Notes under the pieces: generated by a model
The model's database searches: none
Seen by the model: the letters and a program-made list of their open reading frames with translations, nothing else
Told to the model about the DNA's origin: nothing
Made by a program: the position numbers and the translations under genes
Origin: Promethearchaeia archaeon
Lineage (GTDB): Archaea > Asgardarchaeota > Lokiarchaeia > Sigyniarchaeales > SOKP01
Assembly (NCBI GenBank): GCA_029856145.1
Contig: JAHQWK010000030.1
Location: forward strand, 9,261-73,260
Direction of reading: 5' to 3'
Length of the DNA stretch: 64,000 nucleotides
In this document: positions 941 through 21,486 of the stretch, piece by piece
Layout: every line of letters begins with the position of its first letter
Position numbering within the stretch: position 1 is the first letter of the stretch

Positions 941-1402
941 ATGAATAATACTTATAATATGATCGTGTTTGCTTGCTTAAAATGAGGATATAGCGCGGCT
1001 GATTTAGCTGGGGTTTCCCGATTAAAGTATACTCCTGCGGTAAAAATTATCAAAGTAAGATGTACCGGTAGAGTTGACATTAAGCACATTTTGTATAGCA
1101 TTCGTGCGGGAGCTGATGGTGTTATGATTGTCGGTTGAAGACCTAATGAATGTCAATTTAAAAACGGTAATTTCACAGCCGAAAGGCATGTTGATTTAGC
1201 AAATAGAATCTTAGAATCTAGAGGTTTCGGTAGTCAAAGAATAAATATGTATTGGTTAAGTGGAGGAGATGCTGGGAAATTTGTCGAATCTGTCGAGGAT
1301 GCTTACGAAAAGGTAAAAAAAGCTGGACCAAGTCCACTGAACTTAGAACCCGAAGAAATGAAAGTTGATACAAAACAAGTTATAACTACCCCTACAGAAT
1401 GA
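941..1402 (+). CDS. mvhD: Selenocysteine-containing MvhD/VhuD [2Fe-2S] subunit (153 aa, Sec15 and Sec66); absent from the ORF track
   Basis: Manual translation gives MNNTYNMIVFACLK-U-GYSAADLAGVSRLKYTPAVKIIKVRCTGRVD...GADGVMIVG-U-RPNECQF...KKAGPSPL. TGA at 983-985 and 1136-1138 align with the Cys of CNWC and GCH in the paralogs at 8488 and 21052. SD GGAGGTGG lies upstream and a SECIS-like hairpin lies at the 3' end. Confidence 0.93.
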
Positions 1403-1455
1403 TTCTTATAAACAAATTCTAGTTATAAGAAGACTAACCTTGCAAGGGAAGGGGT
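1388..1455 (+). promoter_or_regulatory. Eukaryote-type SECIS element (selenocysteine insertion sequence)
   Basis: AUGA (1399-1402), perfect 9-bp stem TTCTTATAA (1403-1411)/TTATAAGAA (1423-1431), loop containing AAA, then GA (1432-1433): the RUGA..GA kink-turn core. Possible lower helix ACCCCT (1388-1393)/AGGGGT (1450-1455). Confidence 0.85.
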
Positions 1456-1520
1456 TTTTAAATAGTATTCAATTAAAAATAAAAATTTTTATAGAAAATG
1501 TAATCCAAAAGGATGAAAAT

Positions 1521-8487: not shown

Positions 8488-8919
8488 ATGTCTAAGTCAA
8501 AAAAGAAAGTAAATAAAAAGGATTTTCACCCTAATATATTGTGTTTTTGTTGTAATTGGTGTAGTTATGCTGGGGCAGATTTAGCTGGCGTATCTCGTTT
8601 TCAATACCCTCCCACTATTAGAATAGTAAGAGTAATGTGCTCTGGTAGAGTAGACCCGGCTTTTATTTTAGAAGCATTTAGAGATGGGATTGACGGAGTC
8701 ATTGTGACAGGCTGTCACATTGGTGACTGTCATTATCTGAAAGGAAATGAGTTTGCAAGAGATAGGTTTGAAAATTTTCAGGAAGTTCTAAAAATATTCA
8801 ATCTTGAAAAAAGATTTAGACTTGAATGGGTTAGTGCGTCTGAAGGAAAAAGATTTGCTGAAGTTATTACGGAATTTACAAATGAAATTAAAAAACTAGG
8901 TCCATTACAAGCAATTTAA
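8488..8919 (+). CDS. mvhD: MvhD [2Fe-2S] subunit, cysteine form
   Basis: FCCNWCSYAGADLAGVSR, RVMCSGRVD, GCHIGDCHY, WVSASEG. Confidence 0.96.
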   Translation: MSKSKKKVNKKDFHPNILCFCCNWCSYAGADLAGVSRFQYPPTIRIVRVMCSGRVDPAFILEAFRDGIDGVIVTGCHIGDCHYLKGNEFARDRFENFQEVLKIFNLEKRFRLEWVSASEGKRFAEVITEFTNEIKKLGPLQAI

Positions 8920-12866: not shown

Positions 12867-13423
12867 ACTAATCCTCCCTAAAATCGATATAATGGCTAAG
12901 TCATGTTGTATTTGGTAGTCTATCTCTAATTTGATTTAATATCTTAATAATAAACTCTTCTCCAGTAGCAACATCAATGCTTTCTCCATTTTCTGCATTA
13001 TTTTAATGATTCTTGATCGATTCTGCTAACTTTAATGAGAAATGTGTTGGAGATGGATCATAATATTATTTATTATTATCATCATCTAACATTATGTAGA
13101 CAATGGACAATTTTAAAATATTCTCCTACTCAAATCCATCATTTCCACAAGAAAAGTTCCCAATTTGGATCTCATTCTTTTAATTACTTAACAAAAACGA
13201 ACAAAACATTCAGAAAGTCTAAAGAAAGATGGGAATTATGACCGATTACGAAAAATCAAACACAAAAGATGTTTGGGACTGATCATTCACAAAGTGAAAA
13301 ATGTAGGATATTGATCATTTATTATAAAAATATTTATATAATTACATTTCTTTATTTTTTAATCAACGGAAAAAAAGATGCGGAAAACAACTCTTTATCA
13401 AAAAAATTAAAAAGTGTTAAATA

Positions 13424-21051: not shown

Positions 21052-21486
21052 ATGTCGAAATCAAATAAGAAAGCAAAACAAGAAGGATTTGAACCCAACA
21101 TTTTGGTTTTTTGTTGTAATTGGTGTAGCTATGCTGGAGCAGATTTAGCAGGGGTTTCACGATTTCAATATCCCCCCAATATCAGGATAATAAGGGTAAT
21201 GTGTTCTGGACGAGTAGATCCTTCATTTGTGTTAAAAGCTTTAAAGAACGGTGTTGATGGAGTCCTTGTAAGTGGATGCCATATAGGCGATTGTCATTAT
21301 ATTACAGGAAATGAATATACACAGGAAAGATTTGAAAGACTACATTCAATTTTAATAAAACAATTGGGAGTAGATCCTAAACGAGTACGACTAGAATGGG
21401 TAAGTGCGTCTGAAGGAAAGAGATTTGCTGAAGTAATAACAGAATTTACTAATCAAATTAAAGAATTAGGGCCATTAAGACCTTAG
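21052..21486 (+). CDS. mvhD: MvhD [2Fe-2S] subunit, cysteine form
   Basis: FCCNWCSYAGADLAG, GCHIGDCHY. ATG 21052 lies 5 nt after SD GGTGA. Confidence 0.96.
   Translation: MSKSNKKAKQEGFEPNILVFCCNWCSYAGADLAGVSRFQYPPNIRIIRVMCSGRVDPSFVLKALKNGVDGVLVSGCHIGDCHYITGNEYTQERFERLHSILIKQLGVDPKRVRLEWVSASEGKRFAEVITEFTNQIKELGPLRP

Follow-up and report, generated by a model that had tools for sequence, protein, structure and literature searches.

The AUGA core of a lokiSECIS element as the probable stop codon of vhuD in a Lokiarchaeia hdrA-vhuD selenoprotein pair

Eukaryote-like selenocysteine (Sec) insertion elements have been described in Asgard archaea in two previous studies. Mariotti et al. (2016, Mol Biol Evol, PMC4989117) reported lokiSECIS elements in the HdrA-VhuD, VhuU, and PrxL genes of Lokiarchaeota, and the text of that article defines them as AUGA followed by a 9-bp stem, an 11-nt loop, and then GA (or AA). 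The first five bases of the loop are A-rich, and its last G is ultraconserved and usually preceded by A. According to the same text, a single lokiSECIS is located behind the vhuD gene of each hdrA-vhuD pair, AUGA doubles as the stop codon in VhuU.1, the stop codons of VhuD genes are diverse and include UGA, and UGAs situated too close to the SECIS are not recodable for structural reasons. The SECIS-binding protein SBP2 was not detected in the Lokiarchaeota covered there. More recently, Huang, Xiao, and Zhang (2024, ISME J, PMC11227280) described a type I eSECIS-like structure in Asgard archaea, with the core GA_[G/A]A, an upper stem of 7 to 15 bp, an apical loop of 8 to 20 nt, and an internal loop with a lower stem. 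Their text states that hdrA and frhD (vhuD) share one element and that UGA stop codons in Lokiarchaeia often overlap the AUGA motif; the text gives no frequency for this overlap.

The 64-kb window analyzed here, meaning the whole stretch of DNA under study (genome G000, contig C30, positions 9261 to 73260), belongs to a 3.55-Mb genome with a G+C content of 30%, and its first genes are an hdrA-vhuD selenoprotein pair of the kind known from Lokiarchaeota. The 3' part of hdrA, encoding heterodisulfide reductase subunit A with 4Fe-4S domains (Pfam), occupies positions 2 to 934 of the plus strand and ends with UAA (932 to 934). The start of the gene lies upstream of the window. When read from the genome, the whole frame comprises 664 codons with four in-frame UGA codons (C30:8296, 8398, 8473, and 8848) and no other stop before its terminal UAA. 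Only 6 nt separate this UAA from the ATG at position 941 of vhuD (mvhD; 941 to 1402, plus strand), which encodes the delta subunit of a methyl-viologen-reducing hydrogenase (153 residues plus stop) and was identified by the Pfam family FlpD (PF02662; E value, 4.6e-42). Translation with UGA read as Sec (U) places Sec codons at 983 to 985 (codon 15) and 1136 to 1138 (codon 66), both of which are kept in the 103 orthologs analyzed. A third in-frame UGA at 1400 to 1402 (codon 154) is the first in-frame stop after these two. For annotation purposes, vhuD should be treated as one 153-residue selenoprotein, which the ORF caller reports in fragments, with UGA 1400 to 1402 as its probable stop; hdrA upstream adds four further Sec codons that would depend on the same SECIS.

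As for other lokiSECIS hosts, Sec machinery of the archaeal/eukaryotic kind is encoded in the genome. It includes tRNA-Sec (ARAGORN, 12915 to 13007), SepSecS (G000:C8:11546-12847, minus strand; 477 bits, over the curated cut-off), and an EFsec-like GTPase (C8:17129-18019, plus strand), which scored 231 bits and just missed the TIGR00475 (SelB) cut-off, a threshold tuned to bacterial SelB. Approximately 4 kb separates SepSecS and the EFsec-like GTPase on contig C8, and tRNA-Sec may share this contig, beside SepSecS. The presence of tRNA-Sec, SepSecS, an EFsec-like GTPase, and UGA-bearing reading frames therefore indicates that UGA is read as Sec in this organism. Two more MvhD paralogs are located within the window (8533 to 8907 and 21097 to 21474, plus strand); in both, Cys replaces Sec, so that Sec and Cys isoforms of MvhD occur side by side.

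A covariance model of the element in its full three-helix form (cmsearch) matched positions 1375 to 1467 of the plus strand with 104.9 bits, a score to which the window's own sequence contributed as part of the model. Paralogous elements outside the model still scored E values of 3e-11 to 4e-5. The match was the sole significant one within the 64-kb window: the scan found no second SECIS, including at the two Cys-type MvhD paralogs. The AUGA core (1399 to 1402, plus strand), whose UGA is the vhuD stop, is followed by the upper hairpin (1403 to 1431), consisting of a 9-bp stem (1403 to 1411 paired with 1423 to 1431; nine Watson-Crick pairs without mismatch) and an 11-nt loop (1412 to 1422; ACAAAUUCUAG), which is A-rich, with A in four of its first five positions and AG at its end. 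Directly thereafter comes the GA of the SECIS quartet (1432 to 1433), which would pair with G1401 and A1402 of the core as tandem sheared G.A pairs. The core and upper hairpin are enclosed by a lower helix with its 5' strand, ACCCCU, at 1388 to 1393, inside codons 150 to 151 of vhuD, and its 3' strand, AGGGGU, at 1450 to 1455. An accessory 3' hairpin (CCUUGCAAGG, 1438 to 1447) lies between the core and the lower helix. The first-pass annotation had read all of these parts from the sequence, and each of them is present: the AUGA, the stem, the AAA-containing loop, and the GA; the in-frame core UGA with a UAA (1409 to 1411) two codons further on, within the 5' strand of the stem; and the lower helix with its inner hairpin, both of which are conserved in relatives.

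The minimum free energy (MFE) structure computed by RNAfold is exactly this three-helix fold. Compared with shuffled sequences, the fold energy is not significantly more stable (z score of −1.4, also −1.2), which is due to the AU-rich sequence. Loose pattern scans of the genome, allowing one to two mismatches or variable loops, returned dozens to hundreds of chance matches, and the pattern was then restricted. The strict, mismatch-free pattern occurred four times in the 3.55-Mb genome: three times directly behind VhuD genes with in-frame UGAs and once behind another UGA-containing ORF. As all four strict matches follow UGA-bearing ORFs, and as conservation and covariation of the element extend to 97 other genomes, it exceeds what is expected by chance.

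The window element matches the lokiSECIS as defined in the text of Mariotti et al. (PMC4989117) in its AUGA, 9-bp stem, 11-nt loop, loop bases, and GA. The locus likewise shares with the loci described there the single element behind a tightly spaced hdrA-vhuD pair, the multi-Sec HdrA, and an hdrA gene that ends with UAA. In contrast, the explicit example of AUGA serving as a stop in that text is VhuU.1, whereas here it is VhuD, and the text describes one stem-loop, with no mention of the lower helix or the 3' accessory hairpin. With the type I eSECIS-like structure (PMC11227280), it has in common the core, the stems, the element shared by hdrA and vhuD, and the overlap of UGA stop and AUGA, but the text of that study contains no accessory hairpin in the 3' side of the internal loop. 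Figures and supplements aside, the accessory hairpin was thus found in the searchable text of neither paper.

Comparison with eukaryotic SECIS elements of form 1 (Rfam RF00031) revealed a common AUGA...GA quartet, lower helix, and internal loop, unpaired apical adenines approximately 10 to 11 nt past the core, and action at a distance on several UGAs. However, the upper helix of the window element is shorter (9 bp), it carries the extra 3' hairpin, and it lies partly within an ORF, while the eukaryotic element is located deep in the 3' untranslated region. Furthermore, an Rfam scan of positions 1300 to 1560 with E values up to 10 returned no SECIS family, only chance matches to caiA, a snoRNA, and U4. 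The texts of PMC4989117 and PMC11227280 report the same failure of SECIS-finding tools on Asgard elements. The sequence motif of the AUGA/GA quartet is present and invariant among 98 aligned elements, and in eukaryotes the corresponding kink-turn is bound by SBP2. We consider the element to be a eukaryote-like, probable kink-turn Sec insertion element of Lokiarchaeia.

The VhuD SECIS elements of Methanococcales and Methanopyrus, as presented in the text of Mariotti et al. (2016, PMC4989117), belong to the same gene and occupy the same place behind vhuD. They are of the archaeal type with an added AUGA...GAC motif, and the window element shares the 5' AUGA and the 3' GAC (here G1432-A-C1434). 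Reading of the sequence from 1375 to 1467 did not reveal the canonical archaeal (methanogen) arrangement, in which an asymmetric GAA_A bulge is flanked by a lower stem rich in GC and a GC upper stem of 3 bp, and the stems of the window element are AU-rich (31% GC).

The first-pass annotation had also proposed that conservation and covariation in orthologs would decide on the nature of the structure. Ninety-eight distinct elements were aligned with MAFFT without structural guidance, and a three-helix structure string was then imposed for the covariation counts. AUGA, the loop AAA, the closing G of the loop, and the A of GA were invariant in all 98 elements, with G or A as the first base of the GA in every aligned relative. 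The loop was 11 nt long in 93 elements, and C1434, directly after the GA, was more than 90% conserved. In the upper stem, 94.7% of the alignment cells were paired and all nine pairs showed compensatory double changes. Corresponding values were 78.8% and five of six pairs for the lower helix and 83.9% and three of four pairs for the accessory hairpin. None of 500 shuffled alignments reached any of the observed covariation measures, and moving the pairing partners by 1 to 3 columns lowered pairing to 42 to 58%. All three helices thus covary. The upper-stem pair nearest the core was unpaired in 42 of the 98 elements, as expected of the fourth, noncanonical pair of a SECIS quartet.

RNAalifold applied to the unguided alignment recovered the upper stem de novo, and the upper stem only, as many rows of the alignment are not in register in the 3' flank. 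Support for the lower helix and the accessory hairpin consequently comes from the imposed structure string, the shuffle and slide controls, and folds of single sequences. In alignment-free folding, the full three-way fold was obtained for 59 of the 98 elements, compared with 9% of flank-shuffled controls. Similarly, six of the eight SECIS elements of the host genome, which represent four gene families, folded with both an upper stem and an accessory hairpin, and in five of these six the enclosing lower helix formed as well. The accessory hairpin also occurs in the SECIS of VhuD paralogs, a PrxL-like gene, and two other host genes.

These data also bear on the possibility that the structure is a mere transcript-end or stability hairpin, such as a terminator, with only a fortuitous likeness of its AUGA and GA to a SECIS. 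The structure does lie between two genes, and a U5 tract (1455 to 1459, plus strand), common to many but not all orthologs, directly follows the lower helix. This tract may act as an archaeal oligo-U terminator, possibly extending the lower helix; a scan for bacterial-type terminators called no site there. A terminator would not account for covarying helices combined with invariant bases in the core (AUGA), the loop (AAA and closing G), and the GA (its A). In-frame UGA codons are present in the ORFs that precede seven of the eight SECIS-like elements examined in the host genome (VhuD paralogs, the Prx-like gene, and two unnamed ORFs); the eighth element, which is degenerate, comes after a UGA-free ORF. 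No such element accompanies the Cys-type MvhD paralogs of the window. We regard a fortuitous likeness as scarcely credible and retain the reading of the structure as a lokiSECIS.

The position of the stop codon relative to the SECIS core was compared among relatives. Searches of 161 species-representative genomes of the same class yielded a best VhuD ortholog in 105 genomes, that of the host included. Two matches cut by contig ends were left out, and each of the remaining 103 orthologs (own genome counted) was searched for its closest lokiSECIS and for the in-frame stop met first beyond the second Sec codon. A pattern scan gave no match near the stop in five distant orthologs, four of which were recovered by the covariance model. 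In total, an element was present no more than 19 nt from the stop in 102 of the 103 orthologs. The core UGA was in frame and served as the first stop in 70 orthologs, which are related and do not represent independent events. The remaining orthologs stopped at a UAG 5 nt upstream of the core (12 orthologs; conserved UAGAAUGA read in another frame), a UGA 4 nt upstream (6 orthologs), a UAA 7 nt upstream (1 ortholog), or a UAA 16 to 19 nt upstream, in the region of the 5' strand of the lower helix (13 orthologs), while one distant homolog lacked a recognizable core. It follows that the element in every case adjoins the end of the ORF or overlaps it and that stops are available in all three frames of its 5' part.

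All 22 of the closest relatives of the window's vhuD use the core UGA. On a quick maximum-likelihood tree of VhuD proteins, from which C-terminal columns were excluded, the state in which the core UGA is the stop switched approximately 13 times, with at least 3 switches forced by well-supported branches. The three other Sec-VhuD genes of the host genome stop at UAG (−5), UAG (−5), and UAA (−24). Given the optional position of the stop in both orthologs and paralogs and the approximately 13 switches, the overlap of core and stop is frequent and tolerated but not obligatory; it is stable in this clade but not required. The suggestion of a built-in stop that accompanied the initial description of this locus is supported: of the two refuting outcomes named there, a lack of conservation or covariation of the AUGA..GA stem and a core UGA out of frame in most relatives, neither was observed. 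The arrangement is nevertheless optional, with the rest of the orthologs stopping upstream, and the idea has already been published.

Among the more distant relatives, the VhuD SECIS of four genomes of one sister genus (L109 to L112) is a variant resembling type II, in which the apical region is much longer (21 nt separate the two strands of the stem) and the UGA stop of vhuD directly abuts the core (UGA-AUGA). Behind a distant VhuD homolog with 48% identity and two UGAs (L113; G006:C11:387520-388918), the layout is the same, comprising a hairpin of 9 bp, a second, small hairpin on the 3' side, and a lower helix. A-rich sequence takes the place of AUGA and GA there, so that the core may be a divergent one.

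A role of the downstream UAA as a backup stop, as proposed in the first-pass annotation, was not borne out. This stem triplet is the next stop, two codons past the core, in 58 of the 70 core-stop orthologs. However, reading of the alignment showed that the same triplet is UAA in 26 of the 28 aligned elements with an upstream stop. As it is at least as common when the stop is located upstream, it is not a selected backup but a by-product of the conserved stem sequence.

The same region of the alignment is relevant for the alternative that the third UGA is also decoded as Sec and that the protein ends with ...TTPTE-U-F-L at UAA 1409 to 1411. The frame indeed remains open for two more codons before UAA, and 64 of the 70 core-UGA orthologs have a stop within 2 to 3 codons, but in 5 of the 70 no stop follows for 21 to 30 codons. 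The codons past the core UGA vary as RNA pairs rather than as a peptide: the first stem position accepts any of the four bases, with a tendency toward pairing with its stem partner, and the tail is not conserved. A C-terminal Sec would, moreover, be dispensable, as 32 of the 103 orthologs and the three Sec-VhuD paralogs stop at UAA, UAG, or UGA before the core. In addition, the SECIS presumably cannot be folded while a ribosome decodes its core. A U-F-L tail on VhuD is therefore very improbable.

Instead, the element is very probably the lokiSECIS of a bicistronic hdrA-vhuD message, in which the core UGA terminates translation because the SECIS itself has been opened. The proposed structure is a three-helix junction composed of the lower helix, the core with its 9-bp upper hairpin, and the small 3' accessory hairpin, with the 5' third of the SECIS inside the vhuD reading frame. 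A ribosome with UGA 1400 to 1402 in its A site would already have unwound the lower helix and the core. It would then hold the G and A meant for the tandem G.A pairs and would also cover most of the 5' strand of the 9-bp stem. With no folded SECIS at that moment, the Sec elongation factor would not be recruited, a release factor would terminate translation, and the VhuD protein would end with ...TTPTE. Unfolding of the SECIS as the cause of termination would be in line with the text of Mariotti et al. (PMC4989117).

The six upstream Sec codons, on the other hand, would be far enough away for the SECIS to be folded when they are decoded: the distance down to the core is 416 and 263 nt for the codons of vhuD and 1.8 to 2.4 kb for the four of hdrA. 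Most likely, the single SECIS serves all six Sec codons of the hdrA-vhuD message, its use by hdrA being suggested by the arrangement of the genes. The UAA at the end of hdrA agrees with the prediction in the text of PMC4989117 for a stop codon that would be subject to recoding if it were UGA. Across orthologs, the conserved feature is a SECIS that abuts the end of the ORF, and the first stop met in its 5' part is used, whether the core UGA, the UAG or UGA just before it, or the UAA in the lower-helix strand.

The overlap could alternatively represent adaptive regulation, in which each ribosome that ends vhuD translation switches the SECIS off for the six upstream UGAs and thereby couples Sec decoding to ribosome traffic or selenium supply. 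One SECIS serving two cistrons fits this idea, as does the location of the stop in the 5' part of the SECIS or no more than 19 nt before the core in all 102 elements, since a terminating ribosome must then always open at least the lower helix. However, the stop codon varies in both place and type across three frames and has switched approximately 13 times, a drift that looks neutral, and the same layout would arise without regulation from compact archaeal genes and the need for a SECIS on the same transcript. Regulation by this route thus appears unlikely. We likewise assign a low probability to an extended form of this proposal, in which the three-helix junction is the functional unit, the accessory hairpin and lower helix dock an Asgard SECIS-binding factor, and ribosomes erase the SECIS to place HdrA and VhuD under traffic- or selenium-dependent control. 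Opening of the SECIS as a local cause of termination at the core UGA remains the preferred explanation.

Evidence for expression was available from a metatranscriptome contig of a 96%-identical relative, which spans positions 725 to 1530 (the 3' end of hdrA, vhuD, and the SECIS) and contains an identical SECIS. Such contigs constitute weak evidence, as neither the ends nor the strand of a transcript, nor co-transcription, can be read from them and as RNA libraries can contain DNA; other parts of the hdrA-vhuD stretch were not covered by a metatranscriptome contig. The contig crosses the U5 tract into the start of an FrhB-like gene at 1521.

Several further SECIS candidates were observed in the host genome. 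A 158-codon ORF (L119:1039-1515; G000:C9:170437-170913, plus strand) has two adjacent in-frame UGAs (...VVHAD-U-U-ADV...), belongs to no Pfam family, and ends with UAA-UAA. A perfect lokiSECIS (core at C9:170922), complete with accessory hairpin, lies downstream of this ORF, a candidate for a tandem-Sec selenoprotein. Another ORF without a Pfam family, of 73 codons and predicted to encode a membrane protein (L118:1289-1510; G000:C26:76402-76623, plus strand), has one in-frame UGA (GGGG-U-GC). The SECIS-like element after it (C26:76614-76705) scored 38 bits with the SECIS model and folds in the three-helix form, and the ORF may encode a small uncatalogued selenoprotein. Behind a 64-codon ORF without UGA, the SECIS model matched a further element (L117:1501-1592; G000:C22:125117-125208, plus strand) with 48.9 bits; its upper stem is degenerate, and it is either a SECIS decaying after loss of Sec or a false positive. 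A Prx-like selenoprotein gene (L121:968-1501; G000:C9:430667-431200, plus strand; FFRGNW-U-SHC) has its own lokiSECIS, with a UAA stop two bases ahead of the AUGA; here, too, the core UGA is in frame and provides a second stop.

Overall, the overlap between SECIS core and stop codon at this locus is correctly identified but already known, and the window provides a clean example rather than a new principle. The present data add figures on how often the overlap occurs in VhuD and how readily it changes (70 of 103 orthologs, approximately 13 switches), the three-frame layout of stops, and independent support for a three-helix form with an accessory hairpin, while the published principle is unchanged. 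As the lokiSECIS is a proposed evolutionary bridge from archaeal to eukaryotic selenocysteine decoding, its exact anatomy matters for finding the archaeal SECIS-binding factor.
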